Of a DNA stretch of 15,171 bases, positions 2,106 to 13,198 are shown piece after piece. Numbering within the stretch: the stretch's first letter is position 1; every line of letters begins with the position of its first letter. Position numbers and translations under genes: made by a program. Source of the DNA: Bacteriovoracia bacterium (GTDB lineage Bacteria; Bdellovibrionota; Bacteriovoracia; Bacteriovoracales; Bacteriovoracaceae). The notes under the pieces are model-generated. The model saw only the letters and a list, made by a program, of their open reading frames with translations, had not been told where the DNA came from and did not search any database. The stretch spans positions 1 through 15,171 of the forward strand of contig JBKHVI010000060.1 of the NCBI GenBank assembly GCA_046570105.1. Direction: 5' to 3'.

Positions 2106-3488
2106 TTACTGTATCGATTTTTTAGAATCTCTTGCCGTGTTAATTTCTCTTAACCACTGCCCATCCAGTAAGCGCCTCTCAGCGACCATCAACTCGTGGA
2201 GCGCTTCGGTTTCTATCAAGCGGACTTGTGCCTCGGCTTCATCTTGTTCTCGGATATTTACGAAGAAAATATCACTATCACCTTGGTTGAAACGGGTCAG
2301 TTCTGCTCTCGCCATTTTGGAGGTATCACTCACCTCCGATTGTTGCAGCTCAAGTTGCTGACGTGTGGTGGTAAGCGCTTGAGCATTTTGTTTAATCCTC
2401 GCCTCCCATTCACGCTCTAACCACTCTCTGCGATAATTAAGCGCCGCTTTTTTACCCGCAATCTCGCCTCGCTTCCCTTTTCCTTTACGATTTTCTAGTG
2501 GGATCTCCAACATGACTCCTACTCTCAGTTGGTCTTGGCCACCTGGCGCCTGCGACTGCACTCCTACATCTCTCGCCCCTTCGACAGCAAGGCGTAAATC
2601 AGGGAGCTGTTGAGAAATGGCAAATTCTCTTTCTTGCGCCAAAATCTCTTCTTCTAGTTTGACCAATTTAAAAGGGGGTAATTGATCACGAATGCTCACT
2701 TGCGGCAGATCAATCTTATCTTCTGATAACTTAATTTCTGTTTTAACTTCTGATAGCGAGGGAGTGCGATTGATATAGAGCGCGAGTTCGGCCGAGGCCA
2801 TCTCAAAATCTCTTCTCACCTTCACCACATCAGCTTGGCGCTTTAAAAGTGTACGTCGATTATCTGTGAGTTTAATTTGACTGGTATCTCCTGCGCGGAC
2901 TTTTTTCTCCAGAAACTGCTGACGATCCTCGGCTTGCTTTACCCAGTTCTCAAGAATGCGTAATTTTTGACCGGCCATTGTCCATTTCCAAAAGACTTGC
3001 GCCGCCTTAAATAAAACATCCAAACGCTTTTGCTGAACATCGGCTTCGGCTTTTTGCACTTGAATTGAAGACTTAAGTCGATTTAAGCGAAATTCATCAA
3101 TCGCGCGATCTCTTAAAAGTGGAACATCGACGCCTGCAAACAATTCGCCTAAGGAGGATGTTTCATATTTGCCATCGTAAGCGGCAAACACCCCGTTGCC
3201 TTGGCGATGCCCCACGAACATGCGCGATCCCATCCATGGTGTTTGGCGTTCAAGCTTCGTTTCAAAAACTTGGTTGTCATAATTGTCTTCGATCTGGTTC
3301 ATCGATTTAAATTTGATTTTGTGATCAAAAGAACCCTCTTGAGCTTCAAGTACTCCTTCAGCTGCGCGCTTCTTTTCCATCGCTTCCATAATCAAAGGCA
3401 TGCGACTCGCGACAATCCCTTGAACGTCTTCAAACTTTAATGCTGTTCCTGCATGAGCAGTTAAACTCAGCCAGAGAAGAAGAATCAT
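2106..3488 (-). CDS. TolC-family outer membrane efflux protein
   Basis: Signal peptide (MILLLWLSLTAHA), two OEP-like repeats of long amphipathic helices (VDVPLLR..., LEIPLENR..., RFNQGDSDIFFVNIRE), ATGA overlap with the upstream HlyD gene. Confidence 0.9.
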   Translation of the reverse strand: MILLLWLSLTAHAGTALKFEDVQGIVASRMPLIMEAMEKKRAAEGVLEAQEGSFDHKIKFKSMNQIEDNYDNQVFETKLERQTPWMGSRMFVGHRQGNGVFAAYDGKYETSSLGELFAGVDVPLLRDRAIDEFRLNRLKSSIQVQKAEADVQQKRLDVLFKAAQVFWKWTMAGQKLRILENWVKQAEDRQQFLEKKVRAGDTSQIKLTDNRRTLLKRQADVVKVRRDFEMASAELALYINRTPSLSEVKTEIKLSEDKIDLPQVSIRDQLPPFKLVKLEEEILAQEREFAISQQLPDLRLAVEGARDVGVQSQAPGGQDQLRVGVMLEIPLENRKGKGKRGEIAGKKAALNYRREWLEREWEARIKQNAQALTTTRQQLELQQSEVSDTSKMARAELTRFNQGDSDIFFVNIREQDEAEAQVRLIETEALHELMVAERRLLDGQWLREINTARDSKKSIQ

Positions 3489-4522
3489 TTACTCTCCTCT
3501 TTTTTCTCGGCTTTTTCATCCTTGCTGGGAGCTTTCGTTTCCAAGAGACGCTGCAATTCATCTTGAATCGGAGAAATATCCGCTGGCATACCATTAAATT
3601 GTCGCCAGATTTCCCAACCCAGGCTCACAACTGAGAGCCTCACAAATCCACTGGTACGAGCACCTTGGCGAACAAAAAGTTCTGTCGGCCATTTTTCGGC
3701 AGGAACTAACAGCACTCGAAACATGCCGTTTTTTGATGCGACCGCATCCACCAGTTCTACTTTTGCTTTAAAGGTTCCCACTGAAATGGAGGGCCATCCG
3801 GCCGATTGAATGGCCGGCCATCCCGCAAATTTCAAAATTGCTTTCGCTTCTTTTTTAATCAAGGCCACATCATTGGCATTGACCCAAATTTCTGCTGCTA
3901 AGTTTTCTGTTTTGGGAGCTAATACCAAAAGAGCATCTCCCGATTTTACAATCTGGGCCCCTTCACCACTTCTCACTCTCACCACCCAGCCATCGCGAGG
4001 GGACACCACTGATTGGGTTTCTTGGCGAGCGACTTCTCTTTGCGCACGTGCAACGGTTGCTTGCGCCTTCGAGACTTCAATCTCGTATTTGGAAACACTG
4101 ATACGCTCTTTTTCCCAATCTTTTCTCGCTACTAAACCTTGCTCAAATAATTTTTTTTGTCGCTCAAGATTAATCCGACCGGTTTTAAGTGCTAGCTCCG
4201 CCGCCGCTAAGGCTTCTTCCGCAGCTTTTCTCTCGAATTCAAGTCGTCCCACTAAATCTGCGTCGGTATCTGAAAGTGAAACCAAGGGATCGCCCGCCTT
4301 GACCCAGCTCCCCTCTCTGACATGCCACCTTCTCACGAACCCACTGATGGGCGCGTGAATCTCTTGGAAACGCTCATTGGGATCAAGGGCGATGACACGC
4401 CCTTCGCCACTTGAAAATTGCTCCCACGGAAGCACCATCGCCACCGCTGTCACAATCAATAGAATCTTTAAATAAAAAGAAAAACGCAAAAGTGCAGGAG
4501 GTGTTTGTGTAAGATTACTCAT
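3485..4522 (-). CDS. HlyD-family periplasmic adaptor (membrane fusion protein)
   Basis: N-terminal TM, lipoyl half-motifs (IHAPISGFVRRWHVREGSWVKAGDPL; VVSPRDGWVVRV), coiled-coil hairpin (ERQKKLFEQGLV) and GWPAIQSAGWP segment; lies between the ABC-TMD and TolC genes. Confidence 0.92.
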   Translation of the reverse strand: MSNLTQTPPALLRFSFYLKILLIVTAVAMVLPWEQFSSGEGRVIALDPNERFQEIHAPISGFVRRWHVREGSWVKAGDPLVSLSDTDADLVGRLEFERKAAEEALAAAELALKTGRINLERQKKLFEQGLVARKDWEKERISVSKYEIEVSKAQATVARAQREVARQETQSVVSPRDGWVVRVRSGEGAQIVKSGDALLVLAPKTENLAAEIWVNANDVALIKKEAKAILKFAGWPAIQSAGWPSISVGTFKAKVELVDAVASKNGMFRVLLVPAEKWPTELFVRQGARTSGFVRLSVVSLGWEIWRQFNGMPADISPIQDELQRLLETKAPSKDEKAEKKEESK

Positions 4523-5369
4523 TTCCTACTCCGATCGCAGAATCAATTTTCACTAAGGAAGTGATCAGTGAGTAATGCAACTCCAGAAACTTGGACAATT
4601 TCCCAATGGCCAAGAATAGGCCCGTGCCGATCAGCTCAGCTGCAACGAATTGCCCGATACTCAGTTGATTGGCCTGAAATAAAAGGGCGCCTCCCATCAG
4701 CAAGGCCAGTGATCCAACCACCTGTAAGACGATTAAAACAATTAACTGACGTTTGAGAATTTTAAAATGCAAGGCCCGCGCAGTTAGCCATTTACTGCCT
4801 TCTTCTTTACGGCCCTGACTTAACTCATTCCAGGCAAGATACTTTTGATTCGATTCTTCAATCGCGGTCTCAAGACCAGTTGAGCCTAGTTTCCATACCA
4901 CATAAATTCCTCCCCAGACTAAAACGGAGAGCACCACGAAGTAGGGATGATAAATCATCAAGACAACTGTTCCCACAATGAGGGCCAAAAAAGTCTCGAA
5001 GCCATCCAATGCCCATTTGGAAATCGTTTTTATCATCATAGCGATTTCAAAAAACTTGATCTGCTTGCCAGCATCTTTTTGTTCGAAACGAAAAGTCAGG
5101 CGCTCGATAAATTGGCGCTCGATATATTCCAACAACAGCACTTGCGAAAAACGACATAACTGCAAGGCCATCAGACCTAGTCCCAGCATAATACTCAAAG
5201 TAAACAGAGAGAGCCCCAGGCCACTGAACATCAGGTTAGTAACAAGTAACTGAACAATCAGCGGAACTAATAAGGTGAGAAGCGCAAAACCTAGTCCATA
5301 GACCGTAAAGGCACGCCATTCTTTGCGACCGATTAAGAGATACCGATAGATCAAATTGGAAGTTTTCAT
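4515..5369 (-). CDS. ABC exporter transmembrane-domain-only protein (no ATP-binding domain)
   Basis: About 6 TM segments with ABC_membrane-like motifs (LLTLLVPLIVQLLV, GLETAIEESNQKY, ARALHFKIL, QLSIGQFVAAELI) and no Walker A/B. ATG at 5369 is preferred over TTG at 5387. Its stop overlaps the HlyD start by 8 bp. Confidence 0.8.
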   Translation of the reverse strand: MKTSNLIYRYLLIGRKEWRAFTVYGLGFALLTLLVPLIVQLLVTNLMFSGLGLSLFTLSIMLGLGLMALQLCRFSQVLLLEYIERQFIERLTFRFEQKDAGKQIKFFEIAMMIKTISKWALDGFETFLALIVGTVVLMIYHPYFVVLSVLVWGGIYVVWKLGSTGLETAIEESNQKYLAWNELSQGRKEEGSKWLTARALHFKILKRQLIVLIVLQVVGSLALLMGGALLFQANQLSIGQFVAAELIGTGLFLAIGKLSKFLELHYSLITSLVKIDSAIGVGNE

Positions 5370-5376
5370 ATGTTGG

Positions 5377-5405
5377 ATTTTAGCCAATAAATGATTGAAA
5401 TTAAA
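5377..5405 (-). promoter_or_regulatory. Putative sigma70 promoter for the ABC-TMD/HlyD/TolC operon
   Basis: Minus strand TTTAAT (5405-5400), 17-nt spacer, TAAAAT (5382-5377), ending 7 nt before the ATG at 5369; no SD. Confidence 0.4.
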
Positions 5406-7120: not shown

Positions 7121-7187
7121 ACCACCTAATTTGGCAGAGCAGCAAAGCGATGCTACTTCCTTGCCACACACAACAAAGGATATTTTC

Positions 7188-7808
7188 ATGAAAAAGCTCG
7201 CGCTTCTCATTCTCGCCTCGTTGTCTTTGACAGCTTTTGCTCAGCACCGCCCGGCCGCCTACACTTGTCGTGGCAGCGATTTGATTTCCAACAACGGTCG
7301 TTTGGTTCATAGCTTTAGTTTTAGCTCTGATTGCCAAGAGGCGCTTTCGCAGTCTCGCCAATACCGTGGTCGTTTCTGTGATCGCTCAGAACTCTACCGC
7401 ATCAGTGGCGAGCTTCTTCACCGCTTCTCTTTCTCAAGTGATTGCAAAAATTCTCTCTCACAAAGTAACAACCGCTACGGCATTTTCTGTGATCGCTCAA
7501 ATATGATTGGCGACCAAGGCCTCGTTCATACCTTCAACTTTAGCTCTGATTGTTCTAAGGCGATTACTCAGGCCATCAGCGGCCCAGGACTTTTCTGTGA
7601 TAGCTCGGCGATGGTCAGTGTGTTTGATGGTCAAATTCATAACTTCCGCTTTAGCTCAGATTGTACCAACGGCGTTCGCCAGGCCTCTCAGTTCCGCGGC
7701 CGCTTCTGTGATGGCTCAACGATGTATAACCGTCGTGGCCAGGTAACAGGTAACTTCCGCTACTCGCAAGAATGTGAGAACGCACTCCGTCGCAACACTG
7801 AATGGTAG
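7188..7808 (+). CDS. Secreted hypothetical protein with five ~37-aa two-cysteine repeats
   Basis: AAAGGA SD and ATG at 7188; signal peptide MKKLALLILASLSLTAFA; repeats with consensus FCDxS...G.L.H.F.FSSDC...L.Q. Confidence 0.85.
   Translation: MKKLALLILASLSLTAFAQHRPAAYTCRGSDLISNNGRLVHSFSFSSDCQEALSQSRQYRGRFCDRSELYRISGELLHRFSFSSDCKNSLSQSNNRYGIFCDRSNMIGDQGLVHTFNFSSDCSKAITQAISGPGLFCDSSAMVSVFDGQIHNFRFSSDCTNGVRQASQFRGRFCDGSTMYNRRGQVTGNFRYSQECENALRRNTEW
7260..7805 (+). repeat. Intragenic tandem repeat, 5 x ~111 bp (36-37 aa)
   Basis: Recurring TTCTGTGAT and TTTAGCTCTGATTG-like blocks; protein units start YTCRGS, RFCDRS, IFCDRS, LFCDSS, RFCDGS. Confidence 0.85.
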
Positions 7809-7922: not shown

Positions 7923-8765
7923 GTGAAAATATTTATCGCCATGCTGGCCCTTTCTCTCAATGCTTTTGCTCTCGAACTTCCCGTAGGTTCTTTCAATGCT
8001 CTCGAAACAAAAAACAATTCTCCTCTCGCTTTGGATAATGCTCCTTTGTTCGAAGGGATTGTTAAGCTTTCAAACTGTTCAGGCTCATTGGTGATATTTG
8101 ATGGCCAACCAACTACCAGCAAAGCATTGGTACTTACCAATGGTCACTGCTTGGGTGGTGGTTTCTTGAAGCCAAACGAAGTTGTCGTGAACAAGTCAGT
8201 ACGTCGCTCAATGCGCGTTTATGATGCCAAAATGAAATTGCATAACATCAACGCCACTAAGATCGTTTACGGCACCATGACTGATACCGATGCTGCCCTC
8301 TACGAGTTGGATGCGACTTATAACGATATCCAAACTCGCACCAGCATTCGTCCCTTGCTTCTCGCCAATACGCGCCCGTTGGCCGGTGTGAAAATCGATA
8401 TTCCTTCAGGCTACTGGGACCGTAACTGGGCCTGTGAGATTGATGGTTTCGTTCACCAATTGCGTGAAGCTGATTGGCTCTTCACTGATTCAATCCGTTA
8501 CAACCAAGGTTGTGAAACAATCGGTGGGACTTCTGGTTCTCCAGTGGTGGAAAACGGTACACGTATCGTGATCGGTATTAATAACACCGGTAACGAATCT
8601 GGTCGTCGTTGTACAATGAACAATCCATGTGAAGTAGATGAAACTGGTCGCGTAGTGGTTCTTCCGAAGCGCTCTTACGGTCAACAAACCTACAAGTTCT
8701 ACGGCTGTTTCAATGAGAACTTCGCTCTCGATCTTGCTCTCTCGTCGTGTGATCTTCCGAAATAG
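7923..8765 (+). CDS. Secreted trypsin-like (S1) serine protease, paralog 1
   Basis: AGGAGG SD, GTG start, signal peptide; NCSG...LTNGHC (His), TDAALY (Asp), GGTSGSP (Ser); Cys-rich C-terminus CTMNNPCE. Confidence 0.92.
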   Translation: MKIFIAMLALSLNAFALELPVGSFNALETKNNSPLALDNAPLFEGIVKLSNCSGSLVIFDGQPTTSKALVLTNGHCLGGGFLKPNEVVVNKSVRRSMRVYDAKMKLHNINATKIVYGTMTDTDAALYELDATYNDIQTRTSIRPLLLANTRPLAGVKIDIPSGYWDRNWACEIDGFVHQLREADWLFTDSIRYNQGCETIGGTSGSPVVENGTRIVIGINNTGNESGRRCTMNNPCEVDETGRVVVLPKRSYGQQTYKFYGCFNENFALDLALSSCDLPK

Positions 8766-8825
8766 AGTCAACGCCGCCTCTCGCCTCCTGGCTACGGCGG
8801 CATACAGATCATCCTGATCATAAAA

Positions 8826-8854
8826 TAAAAAACCCCGGTTTTATCCCGGGGTTT
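8826..8854 (-). terminator. Rho-independent terminator for a minus-strand transcript (possibly bidirectional)
   Basis: Minus strand AAACCCCGG-GATAAAA-CCGGGGTTT followed by TTTATTTTA. The long U tract is on the minus strand; the plus strand has only TTTG. Confidence 0.8.
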
Positions 8855-8880
8855 GTATCAGGCCGAAGCCTTTCTATAAT
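8853..8880 (+). promoter_or_regulatory. Putative sigma70 promoter, plus strand, antisense to the small minus-strand ORF
   Basis: TTGTAT (8853-8858), 16-nt spacer, TATAAT (8875-8880); predicted start ~8887. Confidence 0.55.
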
Positions 8881-8917
8881 TTCAAATTGAATGTAGTGAA
8901 AACTGAGGCGGCTAATC

Positions 8918-9127
8918 TCATGGAGGACCTTCTCCGTGATGAAGCGGATCTCGGATCTCCGCATAGCCGTGGGAACCAGTTGGTCCATTCCTCACAAGCT
9001 TGTTCGTACTCCAGGCCATCGACTCGGCTCGCGTACTCCAAAACTCATTTTCTGCTCTTGTACTCCGATTCTGGTTCTGGCCTCTAGTACTCCGGAAGCG
9101 AGGGCGGAACGAACGGACAACTCCCAT
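8918..9127 (-). CDS. Small 69-aa hydrophilic peptide with four 9-aa (R/W)ST(RAE) repeats, ending GPP-stop
   Basis: AGGAGG SD (9138-9133) 5 nt before ATG 9127, an upstream promoter and a downstream terminator. Repeats RSTRGQNQN/RSTRAENEF/WSTRAESMA/WSTNKLVRN show synonymous codon variation (Thr ACT/ACA/ACG, Arg AGA/CGA, Ala GCA/GCC, Glu GAA/GAG). Confidence 0.55.
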   Translation of the reverse strand: MGVVRSFRPRFRSTRGQNQNRSTRAENEFWSTRAESMAWSTNKLVRNGPTGSHGYAEIRDPLHHGEGPP

Positions 9128-9151
9128 CAAGACCTCCTATGGTGTCAGTGA
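8936..9151 (+). CDS. Possible 71-aa antisense small ORF (xTP repeats), codon-aligned with the minus-strand peptide
   Basis: GGAGG at 8922-8926, GTG-ATG at 8936-8941, stop TGA at 9149-9151; downstream of the plus-strand TATAAT promoter. May be non-coding antisense RNA instead. Confidence 0.25.
   Translation: MMKRISDLRIAVGTSWSIPHKLVRTPGHRLGSRTPKLIFCSCTPILVLASSTPEARAERTDNSHQDLLWCQ
9006..9093. repeat. Four GTACTCC motifs at exact 27-bp period with 20-bp divergent spacers
   Basis: GTACTCC at 9006, 9033, 9060 and 9087; spacers AGGCCATCGACTCGGCTCGC, AAAACTCATTTTCTGCTCTT, GATTCTGGTTCTGGCCTCTA. Confidence 0.9.
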
Positions 9152-9157
9152 GATTTC

Positions 9158-9186
9158 ATTATGAAGTCGTTTCGTCTCAGCACCAA
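9158..9186 (-). promoter_or_regulatory. Putative sigma70 promoter, minus strand, for the small repeat ORF
   Basis: Minus strand TTGGTG (9186-9181), 17-nt spacer, CATAAT (9163-9158); predicted start ~9151. Confidence 0.45.
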
Positions 9187-9332
9187 ATCGGCCTATCACG
9201 GACATTTTCGTGAACGACAAATTGAGTGCTTAACTCTCCATAAAGCATAAATATTTGCAGGAATGACAGGAATTCTGGGCAAGTTGGTCGCATTTTGTGG
9301 CTTCAAAGCGCTTAAATCCGTAACATTTCTGC

Positions 9333-10109
9333 ATGCACTATTTCCTTAAAAACTATGTTTTGGGCCTCATGACCCCCACCGCTCTCTTTGCCTTGCTCAT
9401 TTTGACGGGTGTTGTTCTCGTGCTTAAAAATAAGCACCGACTTTCTCGTTCATTTTTAATCGTCGGCACATTGCTACTCTTCACCTGGTCATTGACTCCT
9501 CTTACAGAGTTGATGATTCGTCAGTATGAAGGACAGTTCCCGGCCTTTGAGGTCGATGTTCTCAATGAACAACAGCGCAGCGAGATTCCTTATGTCGTAG
9601 TCTTAAGTGGTGGCTACGCTCCTAATGAGCATCAGCCTTTATCATCACAACTAGGCTCCTTTACTCTTACACGTTTGATTGAAGGGATCCGCCTCCACAA
9701 AGCTCTACCCAACAGTCGCTTAGTCGTGTCCGGCTCAAGTGACCTCAAATTCACTGAAGCCGAGGCGATGCAAAAGCTGGCCCTCTCTCTGGGAGTGGCG
9801 GCGGACAAAATCATCATTGAGACCCAGTCACGCAATACCTACCAGCATCCTCGTTATATCGCTCCCATCGTGGGCAAAAATCCTTTTATTCTGGTGACCT
9901 CAGCGCTACACATGCCGCGAGCAATGGGCCAGTTTCGAGGCTTTGGGCTGTATCCCATGGCCGCTCCCACTCACTTTCTTTATCTAGGTGAATACCGCTT
10001 ATTCAATCGCCCACCGTATCCTCGCGGTGAGAATCTCTTTTACTTAGATCTATTTTTTACGGAAGCGGTAGGAACGATGGTGGCGTGGCTGAAAGGTGAG
10101 CTGAAATAG
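9333..10109 (+). CDS. YdcF/ElyC/SanA family (DUF218) envelope protein
   Basis: Two N-terminal TMs, then VVVLSGG, LVVSGS, EAEAM, ETQSRNT and LVTSALHMPRA motifs. Confidence 0.92.
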   Translation: MHYFLKNYVLGLMTPTALFALLILTGVVLVLKNKHRLSRSFLIVGTLLLFTWSLTPLTELMIRQYEGQFPAFEVDVLNEQQRSEIPYVVVLSGGYAPNEHQPLSSQLGSFTLTRLIEGIRLHKALPNSRLVVSGSSDLKFTEAEAMQKLALSLGVAADKIIIETQSRNTYQHPRYIAPIVGKNPFILVTSALHMPRAMGQFRGFGLYPMAAPTHFLYLGEYRLFNRPPYPRGENLFYLDLFFTEAVGTMVAWLKGELK

Positions 10110-10913: not shown

Positions 10914-11573
10914 ATGCAAAACCTAATTGATTTCGCTTGGACTGTGATTAATTTCATTCTTAAAATTGATGTGCACTTAGTCGCCATCACCACAGAATAT
11001 GGCGCATGGACTTATGCCGTCTTATTTCTCATCGTCTTTGCTGAAACTGGCTTTGTGGTCACTCCTTTTTTACCAGGTGACTCACTTTTGTTCGCCGCTG
11101 GCGCACTCGCCGCACTAGGTTCACTTGATCTCTATATCATGATGGGAACTCTCTTTGTTGCTGCTGTAATTGGCGACGCTGTCAATTATCATATCGGGCG
11201 CTACTTAGGGCCAAAGGTTCTTTCTGGAAAGTATCCATTCCTGAAAAAAGAGTATTTGGAAAAAACCCAGGGCTTCTACGACAAGTACGGCGTGAAAACC
11301 ATTATCATCGCGCGTTTTGTTCCCATCGTGCGCACCTTCGCACCTTTCATGGCAGGCGTTGGCAATATGAACTACGGTCGCTTCTTTACCTACAATGTGG
11401 TCGGTGCACTTTTGTGGGTTTTGATTTGCTGTCTGGCGGGCTTTTTCTTTGGCAATATTCCCGTGGTGAAGAAAAACTTTGGTTTAGTAGTCATTGGCAT
11501 CATCATTGTTTCAGTACTTCCCATGGCGGTCGAAATTCTCAGAGCAAAGTTTTCTCATAAGGCACAAGCATGA
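10914..11573 (+). CDS. dedA: DedA family membrane protein
   Basis: LIVFAETGFVVTPFLPGDSLLFAAGA, GDAVNYHIGR, ARFVPIVRTFAPF motifs; ATGA overlap with the next gene. Confidence 0.95.
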   Translation: MQNLIDFAWTVINFILKIDVHLVAITTEYGAWTYAVLFLIVFAETGFVVTPFLPGDSLLFAAGALAALGSLDLYIMMGTLFVAAVIGDAVNYHIGRYLGPKVLSGKYPFLKKEYLEKTQGFYDKYGVKTIIIARFVPIVRTFAPFMAGVGNMNYGRFFTYNVVGALLWVLICCLAGFFFGNIPVVKKNFGLVVIGIIIVSVLPMAVEILRAKFSHKAQA

Positions 11574-13198
11574 TCGCAATTAGTGATATCACCGAGACTC
11601 ACTCAGGGCACACCCTTTATGAGAAGGCCTCGTTCCAAATTAAGCCCGGTGAAAAAATCGGTTTAGTAGGACCCAACGGTGCCGGTAAAACAACTTTCTT
11701 TCGTTTGATTGTTGGCGAGGAAAAAGCGGATACTGGTTCGATTTCGATGCCCTCAGGTTGGCGCGTTTCCTACTTCTCGCAAAACGTAGGAGAAATGAAA
11801 GGCCGCTCGGCTCTCTCTGAAGTTATGACGGGTGACCTACAAATTGTTAAACTCAAAGACGAACTCGACAACCTGCAAGCGCAACTCGATAACGCCTATG
11901 CAGACCCAAACAATGCGCCAGACGACGACTGGCTTGCTGGGATTCTAGAAAAACTTGGCGACGCCCAAACTGCTTTTGAGCAGCGAGGCGGCTTTGATAT
12001 GGAAACTCGCGCGCAAGAAGTTCTGACTGGTCTAGGCATTGGCCCTGATCGCTTTAATACACCCGTCGAGCACTTCTCGGGTGGCTGGAAGATGCGGATC
12101 GCACTAGCAAAAGTTCTCATCACAAAACCCGATGTCATCCTAATGGATGAGCCGACCAACTATCTCGATCTCGAGACAATTCTTTGGCTAGAAGCGTGGC
12201 TTAAGGCCTTTCAAGGTGCCATCCTTATGACCAGCCACGATCGCTGGTTTATGAATGCTATTGTGAACAAGATTGTCGAAGTCCGCCATGGTGCAGTTAC
12301 CACTTATACTGGCAATTATGATTTTTATGAGCGCGAAAGAAATATTCGTCGCGAGCAACTTGAAGCGCAGAAAGATCGCCAGGATGCTATGCTCAAAAAA
12401 GAAGAAGAATTTATTGCTAAGTTCGCCGCACGTGCATCTCACGCTGCTCAAGTTCAATCACGAGTCAAAAAGCTTGATAAAATCGAGCGCGTTGAAGTCA
12501 CTCCTGATGAAATGGCCATTCAGTTTGAATTTCCGCAAGCACCACGCGGTGGCAACGATGTCGTGGTTATTGAAAATCTTGGGAAAACTTGGAAGCGCGA
12601 TGACGGTGTTGAAAATAAAGTCTTCTCAGGACTCTCCGCAACTGTTCGCCGCCAAGAAAAGCTCGCAGTCATTGGAGTCAACGGAGCAGGTAAATCAACT
12701 CTCCTAAAAATGGTCACCGGTGATGTTGAAGCGACTGAAGGAAAAGTCAAAACGGGTGAAGGAATTAAGTTTGGCTACTTCGGCCAATTCACTTTGGATG
12801 TTTTAAAGCCTGACAACACCGTGTGGGATGAAGTTAAAAACTATGTCCCCATGATGACTGATGGTGCAGTAAGATCTCTTCTCGCTGCCTTCTTATTTCG
12901 CGGTGACGATGTTGAAAAGAAAGTTAAGTATCTCTCGGGCGGGGAAAAGGCGCGCTTGGTACTTGCCGGCATTCTCGCGACTCCAAAAAATCTTCTCGTC
13001 TTGGATGAGCCAACCAACCATTTGGACATTCGCTCGCGTGAAATTCTTCTCGATGCATTGAAAGCCTACGACGGCACCGTTATGCTCGTGAGTCACGATC
13101 GTCACTTCTTGCGCGAGTTATGTAATCGCGTGTGGGAAGTCGACAAAGGTGTCATCCGCCAATTTCCTGGGACATATAAAGAATGGTTGGAGCGTTAA
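11570..13198 (+). CDS. ABC-F family ATPase (ribosome-associated; YheS/YbiT/Uup-like)
   Basis: Two NBDs (GPNGAGKT...FSGGWKMR...DEPTN; GVNGAGKS...LSGGEKAR...DEPTNHLD), inter-domain linker YTGNYDFY..., no TM segments. Confidence 0.95.
   Translation: MIAISDITETHSGHTLYEKASFQIKPGEKIGLVGPNGAGKTTFFRLIVGEEKADTGSISMPSGWRVSYFSQNVGEMKGRSALSEVMTGDLQIVKLKDELDNLQAQLDNAYADPNNAPDDDWLAGILEKLGDAQTAFEQRGGFDMETRAQEVLTGLGIGPDRFNTPVEHFSGGWKMRIALAKVLITKPDVILMDEPTNYLDLETILWLEAWLKAFQGAILMTSHDRWFMNAIVNKIVEVRHGAVTTYTGNYDFYERERNIRREQLEAQKDRQDAMLKKEEEFIAKFAARASHAAQVQSRVKKLDKIERVEVTPDEMAIQFEFPQAPRGGNDVVVIENLGKTWKRDDGVENKVFSGLSATVRRQEKLAVIGVNGAGKSTLLKMVTGDVEATEGKVKTGEGIKFGYFGQFTLDVLKPDNTVWDEVKNYVPMMTDGAVRSLLAAFLFRGDDVEKKVKYLSGGEKARLVLAGILATPKNLLVLDEPTNHLDIRSREILLDALKAYDGTVMLVSHDRHFLRELCNRVWEVDKGVIRQFPGTYKEWLER

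Follow-up and report, generated by a model that had tools for sequence, protein, structure and literature searches.

A conserved small minus-strand gene of a Bacteriovoracaceae genus may encode a nascent-chain pausing peptide that has no downstream gene

The window analysed here is a stretch of 15,171 nucleotides from a Bacteriovoracia bacterium (assembly GCA_046570105.1, contig JBKHVI010000060.1). Between a gene for a trypsin-like protease (7923-8765, plus strand) and a DUF218 gene (9333, plus strand) lies a short region that the initial annotation had described as a two-fold symmetric cassette expressed from both strands. All motif letters of that description are in place. On the plus strand, TTGTAT (8853-8858) is separated from TATAAT (8875-8880) by 16 nt, and on the minus strand TTGGTG (9186-9181) from CATAAT (9163-9158) by 17 nt. 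The words AATCTCA (8914-8920) and GGAGG (8922-8926) are matched by TGAGATT (9149-9155) and CCTCC (9133-9137), and each strand carries an ORF (8936-9151, plus; 9130-8918, minus). By BLASTN, the locus is present in 10 of 10 other genomes of the same Bacteriovoracaceae genus. DNA comparisons were made over 16 loci, comprising those of the 11 genus genomes and five of six metagenome loci (L080 was excluded as a near-duplicate of L079). The features of the region are listed below.

9251..9258, minus strand: upstream box, GCAAATAT here and CTCAATATT in relatives, 94-95 nt upstream of the -10 box in 7 of 16 loci
9158..9186, minus strand: sigma-70-type promoter (-35 TTGGTG, -10 CATAAT), with a -10 box in 16 of 16 loci
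9133..9138, minus strand: Shine-Dalgarno (SD) sequence AGGAGG, 5 nt ahead of the ATG; all 16 loci carry GGAGG at -9 to -11
8918..9127, minus strand: conserved small ORF of 69 aa, hydrophilic and predicted disordered, in 11 of 11 genus genomes
8987..9094, minus strand: four 27-nt (9-codon) units of the R/W-S-T-R-A-E type, each beginning with GGAGT
9023..9031, minus strand: last R-A-E motif, exactly 37 residues ahead of the Pro-Pro end
8921..8960, minus strand: C-terminal motif ExxD(P/K)xHxGEGPP, with two GGAG words (8960-8957, 8935-8932) and CCY as first Pro codon
8888..8894, minus strand: 3'-UTR word ACAUUCA, 15-29 nt past the stop in 10 of 16 loci
8860..8871, minus strand: small 3'-UTR hairpin ahead of the terminator, recognised by eye in roughly half the loci of the alignment
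8820..8854, minus strand: intrinsic terminator (called at 8854-8830), a hairpin with a T run in 16 of 16 loci
8936..9151, plus strand: antisense shadow ORF sharing the codon register of the minus ORF, without support as a gene
8853..8880, plus strand: promoter-like match TTGTAT-16-TATAAT, strain-specific

The small gene on the minus strand is real, unnamed and unusual. Its ORF is intact in all 11 genus genomes, where it spans 51-71 aa, and it occurs as a single copy per genome. A profile search of 237 family genomes gave matches in 11, every one in this genus; the gene was not found in the other 226, a negative that incomplete genomes and remote homology weaken. Of 401 phylum genomes, four gave matches, again only from this genus, and viral contigs contained no homologue. 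The minus frame has a pN/pS of 0.50 over the 16 loci, the differences fall mostly on third positions (2621 versus 1666 and 1519), and indels within the ORF among aligned loci measure 3 or 27 nt. The gene is thus under purifying selection at the protein level, and its promoter-like site, SD and terminator are conserved with it. The -10 box reads [CG]ATA[AC]T in 14 loci and TAAG[AC]T in the other two, lies 27-30 nt from the ATG in 15 of 16, and predicts a transcript start near 9151; a consensus promoter scanner called neither the minus nor the plus promoter. The upstream box at 9251..9258 is a possible regulator site of the minus promoter. At the other end, the terminator hairpin has a predicted energy of -16 to -25 kcal/mol ahead of the T run in every locus, and compensatory changes occur in four of the seven pairs of its stem. 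The terminator probably works in both directions and serves the convergent protease gene as well.

Part of the interval 8700-9400 is present in 24 sequencing runs of 15 studies, and 16 of these runs are recorded as RNA. One contig each from four of the 24 runs (four studies) was compared; they span 8916-9125, 8896-9118, 8852-9138 and 8896-9137. The metatranscriptome contigs are confined to 8852-9138 and leave the flanking genes in the query uncovered, which we do not take as proof that those genes are silent. Their extents are compatible with a separate transcript that starts near 9151 and ends at the terminator. The minus gene is apparently a well-expressed monocistronic mRNA running from about 9151 to 8825, where abundance is inferred from contigs that are unstranded, carry no level and may include DNA. 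The RNA contigs of two studies end exactly at 8896, one of them with adapter letters, 2 nt before ACAUUCA. These ends possibly reflect a processing site, the start region of an antisense RNA or a break in assembly.

Within the transcript, the RNAalifold consensus keeps only the terminator and an invariant three-pair mini-helix, and the 3'-UTR hairpin at 8860..8871 was not recovered by the program. Rfam searches at gathering and E-value thresholds gave nothing real, only weak terminator-driven matches. The window contains no tRNA or tmRNA, the tmRNA of the genome lying elsewhere. We also considered that the 3' UTR might act by seed targeting through ACAUUCA, and rejected this: the complement of the word is not enriched at start regions (18 versus 14.8 expected), and no Hfq was found. 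Likewise rejected was a second ORF starting on the stop codon (AUGA) or a +1/-1 frameshift product, for which neither sequence nor frame is conserved.

The available sequence reaches far enough past the gene in 14 loci; in each of these the neighbour behind it is convergent, and no co-directional gene follows. Together with the terminator of all 16 loci, this bears out the earlier view of a minus RNA with its own terminator and no gene behind it. In the GC-rich locus L015, an open frame additionally shadows the protease gene. A tie to the convergent protease was discarded, as 16 loci of other genera that carry a protease orthologue show no such ORF behind it, and the protease is replaced by other genes in 3 of the 14 loci. 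Upstream, the neighbours differ among loci (DUF218, DUF455 ferritin-like, desaturase, DedA, ExbD), and there is no syntenic partner gene.

Some neighbouring genes deserve mention in their own right. Upstream of the protease, and kept there throughout the genus, 7131-7808 encodes a secreted-looking protein of Cys-containing repeats (FSFSSDC / RFCD) with no Pfam match. A 525-aa membrane protein without a Pfam match (408-1985) is also found near the locus in L029. The stretch 2106-5387 holds TolC-like and HlyD-like genes and a short ABC membrane-domain gene that has no nucleotide-binding domain; L080, L081 and L033 have short genes of a similar kind close to the locus. At 10914-13198, and also in L027, L029, L033 and L034, an operon points away from the small gene; it encodes DedA and what we take, by sequence pattern, to be an ABC-F protein (a ribosome-associated ATPase family). 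A DUF455 ferritin-like gene sits directly upstream on the same strand in L008:1974-2456, L009:1766-2380 and L081:789-1310, and is absent from that place in the window.

How, then, does the appearance of a mirrored cassette arise? The mirrored motifs are there, whereas the mirror itself is inexact: AATCTCA and GGAGG are 1 nt apart on the plus strand and 11 nt apart on the minus strand, and the SD-to-ATG gaps are 12 and 5 nt, respectively. The plus 'SD' is the reverse complement of the minus Pro-Pro codons, the plus ATG that of a His codon, and the TCA within AATCTCA that of the minus stop codon, while the plus ORF overlays the minus ORF codon for codon. Most of the symmetry therefore follows from the minus gene. 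This genome also provides chance baselines. A same-register antisense frame is open in 699 of 9471 gene windows of 65 codons (about 7%), and among 20000 random 245-nt stretches, 676 have ends that share an exact inverted repeat of at least 7 nt. Within 110 nt after the stop, an antisense promoter-like site scoring 9/12 follows 48 of 1593 genes, and an exact antisense TATAAT follows 17 of 1593. Neither strand folds better than its shuffles (z-scores of -1.15 for minus and -0.58 for plus). The apparent two-strand cassette is one unnamed small minus-strand gene, and the symmetric cassette is not real as such.

The initial annotation had further placed the region close to type I toxin-antitoxin loci, with hok/sok and aapA/isoA as the comparison; both strands would be expressed, the gene would be antisense-regulated, and the 3' part of the RNA would mask its own SD. 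In this strain a perfect TATAAT does face the gene, and the two RNA contigs ending at 8896 stop 9 nt away from the plus start predicted near 8887. In all 16 loci the first Pro is encoded by CCC or CCT, so that an antisense GG(A/G)GG is retained, and half of the loci (8 of 16) have an open plus frame, above the 7% baseline. Comparison of the homologous loci upheld the minus promoter and SD, and it did not uphold the plus promoter or the inverted repeat. The exact TATAAT occurs in 1 of 16 loci; the promoter-like score reaches 9/12 only in the window, is 6-8 at shifting places in 14 loci, and no such site exists in one. The AATCTCA/TGAGATT repeat is also found in 1 of 16 loci and is already broken in the nearest genome (96% identical); of the four compared metatranscriptome contigs, three have one arm altered and the fourth does not reach the site. 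In 8 of 16 loci the plus ORF is broken downstream of its would-be start, two further loci have a stop just ahead of that start, and the plus frame has a pN/pS of 1.07. Predicted pairing of the minus SD with the Pro-Pro codons, which would mask the SD, has a probability of 0.12 or less in 15 of 16 folds (0.01 in the window) and of 0.63 in one, and this pairing is absent from the RNAalifold consensus. One RNA contig continues to 8852, beyond the plus start and within the minus terminator; no contig extends past 9138, though the plus strand has no terminator there.

The peptide is also unlike a type I toxin. It is hydrophilic and repetitive, as had been proposed from the start, with a 19-residue hydropathy of -0.62 (1.34 for the plus shadow) and direct repeats spaced 27 and 27. 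None of 31 homologues has a transmembrane-like segment (maximum 19-residue hydropathy 0.84), and no helix is predicted. The likeness to hok/sok and aapA/isoA (excerpts of PMC8309996) is confined to a small ORF and, in this strain, a convergent promoter-like site; they differ from a gene that encodes a hydrophilic, disordered peptide, is kept vertically in one genus as a single copy, and has no conserved antisense promoter, inverted repeat or SD masking. We therefore regard a toxin-antitoxin-like, antisense-regulated cassette as highly improbable, and what stands of the original proposal is a stand-alone small-peptide unit that matches no family. Antisense transcription may nevertheless occur in this strain, given that the RNA contigs carry no strand.

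Protein searches returned 28 homologues of the minus peptide, and 9 of 13 matches in a 50%-cluster library are homologues. The set of 31 proteins used below consists of 90%-identity clusters and their members at 35-94% identity, and partly represents the same organisms as the 16 loci. Four long matches from a search of 1.84 billion sequences are unrelated repeats and were excluded from all counts; two of them look, in our reading, like translated CRISPR arrays. The predicted 'proteins' P0029 and P0033 resemble translated CRISPR arrays, with a repeat that spells HLGEGP and so matches the motif by chance. On contig C36, a second HRGEGPP-stop lacks a start and runs antisense within relA/spoT, and was likewise set aside as chance. 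A more distant subfamily ending in EMRDKTHRGEGPPx is known only from metagenomes; in one member (L078:758-827) the 5' leader is 24 nt longer and can form a hairpin before the SD. Among 8000 scored candidates there were no longer or fused forms, which is weak evidence, and the peptide belongs to no family in Pfam, NCBIfam, PHROGs or the ESM Atlas.

Conservation is concentrated in the last 13-20 residues and in an RA[ED] motif 37 residues upstream. This motif is present in one to three copies, always 9 residues apart, and the last copy is exactly 37 residues from the end of Pro-Pro in all 31 proteins and all 16 loci. Nine positions are invariant in all 31 proteins (R-36, A-35, E-12, D-9, H-6, G-4, E-3, P-1 and P0); they cluster at -36/-35 and from -12 to 0, and the spacer between them is highly variable yet free of indels. 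GEGPP (GEDPP in one protein) always lies 0-2 residues from the C-terminal end. The stop follows Pro-Pro directly in 19 of 31 proteins, and one or two residues later in 12. AlphaFold predicts a disordered peptide (pLDDT 54.6, pTM 0.11).

A further layer of conservation is found at the codon level. All 16 loci use GGA for the G of GEGPP, and either CCC (13 loci) or CCT (three loci) for the first Pro, while in the most codon-biased genes of genome G000 GGA and CCC make up 8% and 1% (23% and 18% genome-wide). With the peptide and G000 codon usage taken into account, GGAG ranks first in over-use among the 256 tetramers (mean z 2.67); the G000 usage was applied to all 16 loci, whose kinship makes them non-independent, and the GGA excess is smaller under uniform codon usage (mean z 0.82). 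Counted from the GGAG at 8935-8932 (position 0), which is present in 16 of 16 loci versus 3.8 expected, a second lies at -25 (8960-8957; 14 of 16 versus 1.0 expected). Further sites follow at -77, -104, -131 and -158 nt (in the window, GGAG at 9012, 9039, 9066 and 9093); these upstream sites are repeat copies of one another, and the first and last of the four 27-nt units are degenerate. The Arg or Trp before S/T is encoded by CGG, AGG or TGG in 21 of 28 motifs, and 4 of the 28 (RETRAE) have no GGAG. The codon before the conserved Glu ends in G in 15 of 16 loci, whether it encodes Ala, Ser or Arg. Rare codons thus maintain a CCY Pro codon and, at intervals of about 26 nt, SD-like GGAG words.

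An excess of GGA poses the question whether the RNA itself is the product. An abundant, GGA-rich mRNA could titrate CsrA and also encode a peptide, and csrA adjoins fliW in G000. The window transcript has 11 GGA in about 330 nt (5-12 in homologues), the CDS has 9 versus 3.1 expected, exceeding all 400 control windows, the GGAs of the window repeats are predicted to be mostly unpaired (0.6-0.9), and the gene has its own promoter and terminator. CsrA sites follow an ANGGA consensus. The conserved word is GGAG rather than ANGGA, with G at +1 in 59 of 103 CDS sites, and A at -2 in 24 of 103 compared with 13 of 27 in six G000 flagellin leaders. In addition, the two most conserved GGAs are predicted to be paired in the window, RNAalifold finds no conserved GGA hairpins, Rfam gives no Csr/Rsm match, and short homologues have only 3-8 GGA in the CDS. 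In Bdellovibrio, according to the excerpted text of PMC13443453, CsrA is a working repressor at a flagellin leader, which counts for titration. The locus resembles the CsrB/CsrC/RsmZ sponges and the dual-function flaA mRNA of FliW-type systems (excerpts of PMC4894983) in being a stand-alone RNA of 220-340 nt with repeated GGA, an intrinsic terminator and CsrA in the genome. It differs from them in its conserved translated ORF, its GGAG word, and the lack of GGA-loop hairpins and of an Rfam match. A titrating RNA is, in our view, quite unlikely.

Alternatively, the peptide could be an orphan RiPP or pheromone precursor, with the RA[ED] repeats as recognition or cleavage sites and a C-terminal product of fixed length. 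The variable N-terminal repeats and the conserved C-terminal part of fixed length would suit this, and G000 has 27 radical-SAM matches (a bulk count). No modifying or export gene is conserved beside the small gene, though, none of its varying neighbours is a RiPP enzyme, and neither a signal nor a double-Gly leader nor a Pfam or NCBIfam precursor match is present. Lasso peptidase, RRE and MvdD-type domains were not found in G000 (88% complete), although the MvdD-type search gave no match in any control genome either. The sole MNIO cluster of G000 has its own Cys-rich precursor, and we consider a precursor role improbable. That cluster (L085, G000:C1:74722-78495) comprises genes for an ECF sigma factor, an anti-sigma factor, the Cys-rich secreted precursor, MNIO and a partner, and is presumably of the bufferin type.

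We tentatively favour the explanation that the minus ORF encodes a nascent-chain pausing peptide that has no downstream gene. Here, the disordered peptide of 51-71 residues would act mainly as a nascent chain, and ribosomes would pause at Pro-Pro, at or just before termination. The pause may be aided by tunnel contacts of the C-terminal motif and by pairing of the anti-SD with the GGAG about 9-12 nt behind the P site. During the pause RA[ED] would sit at the tunnel mouth, within reach of a factor that might sense the complex or release it. As there is no gene to regulate, the stalled complex itself would be the output: the RNA with its ACAUUCA-bearing 3' UTR may be protected or processed, the amount of free peptide released may be controlled, or ribosomes may be held.

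Several lines of evidence point to this reading. The ribosomal tunnel accommodates 30-40 residues, and stalling and tagging are known at Pro-stop. The conserved C-terminus is of tunnel length, and it is joined by a fixed spacer to a motif that would lie at the tunnel mouth, and by an SD-like word and a slow Pro codon. These elements are kept in intact ORFs under protein-level selection, with the distance of 37 residues in every protein, and the disorder prediction offers no stable fold that could explain the fixed spacer. At the nucleotide level, the GGA and CCC codons, the top-ranking GGAG tetramer and the CGG/AGG/TGG codons before the repeat motifs are in line with pausing, as are the terminator, the convergent next gene and the confinement of the RNA contigs. 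According to the excerpted texts of PMC12992588 and PMC11890864, arrest peptides typically carry a C-terminal xGPP core and stall in a Pro-dependent manner.

Other observations argue against pausing. The core has Glu where ApcA, ApdA and ApdP depend on Arg. Nine of the 11 genus genomes, G000 among them, have EF-P. In E. coli, according to the excerpted text of PMC4140641, only 2.8% of PPX motifs are paused even without EF-P, and internal SDs have no effect on those pauses. The stop adjoins Pro-Pro in just 19 of the 31 proteins, some repeats have no GGAG, and the GGA excess weakens under uniform codon usage. Finally, the arrest peptides known so far regulate a downstream gene, of which there is none here.

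A fixed spacer would also fit a peptide that folds on a partner. The product could thus be an ordinary disordered protein that is released and binds a partner via its two short motifs, the nucleotide biases being due to common descent. RA[ED] would be repeated for avidity, and the His/acidic C-terminal motif is possibly a ligand for a metal or the ribosome surface. The clear protein-level selection, with synonymous change at R, A and D, agrees with this, as do repeats that retain TRAE even where GGAG is lost, the C-terminal extensions of one or two residues in 12 of 31 proteins and the predicted disorder. Such a protein leaves the invariant rare codons (GGA and CCY, each in 16 of 16 loci) and the G-ending codon before the conserved Glu (15 of 16) unexplained, and a partner gene is not syntenic, with upstream neighbours varying. 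We consider a released protein somewhat unlikely.

If the peptide does pause ribosomes, a more elaborate and rather improbable extension is that the mRNA parks them. Behind a lead ribosome stalled at GEGPP, trailing ribosomes would line up at intervals of about 26-27 nt. An SD-like GGAG would hold each of them, and each would expose its own RA[ED] 37 residues from its catalytic centre, so that every 27-nt duplication would add one slot. A starving, non-growing predator could in this way store ribosomes on one abundant transcript. All GGAG sites from 0 to -158 nt fall within 2 nt of a 26-nt lattice; the test was post hoc and is borderline, with chance probabilities of 0.044 (two independent sites), 0.004 (three) and 0.064 (a looser test). 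Queued ribosomes lie about 27 nt apart according to the excerpted text of PMC7544508, which matches the duplication unit.

Under the preferred pausing reading, several of the nearest counterparts of the peptide are arrest peptides. With the RAPP/RGPP-type (ApdA, ApdP, ApcA, SecM, CruR; excerpts of PMC12992588) it shares a small ORF with a conservation peak at a C-terminal x-G-P-P, a variable spacer and a conserved N-terminal element outside the tunnel. In contrast to these, it has no signal or transmembrane segment and no downstream gene, and it contains repeats and SD-like words inside the ORF. In ApcA, ApdA and ApdP, the Arg at the first place of the core is irreplaceable in the same excerpts; here the core is E-G-P-P, with Glu at that place in 31 of 31 proteins. 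Because the essential Arg is replaced by Glu and no downstream gene is present, the minus peptide is not a RAPP peptide. TnaC, PepNL and SpeFL (excerpts of PMC11890864) are similar in having prolines at or next to the stop and conserved upstream residues. Compared with these and with CMV uORF2, the minus peptide is two to three times longer, its stop is non-adjacent in 12 of 31 proteins, it is made from a stand-alone transcript rather than a leader, and no sequence similarity was found. The likeness to CMV gp48 uORF2 itself lies in its Pro-Pro-stop end. Our full-text literature search, which covered main texts and few subscription papers, turned up no publication that deals with this family or with a stand-alone arrest ORF from Bdellovibrionota.

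The arrest peptides known so far act as switches of the gene that follows them. If the pausing reading is true, stalling can be a product rather than a sensor, serving to protect an RNA, to release a 3'-UTR RNA or to store ribosomes. This would be of interest in predatory bacteria, whose starvation physiology is poorly known. At a minimum, the locus adds an unnamed, genus-diagnostic family of small proteins whose RNA is found in many metatranscriptomes.
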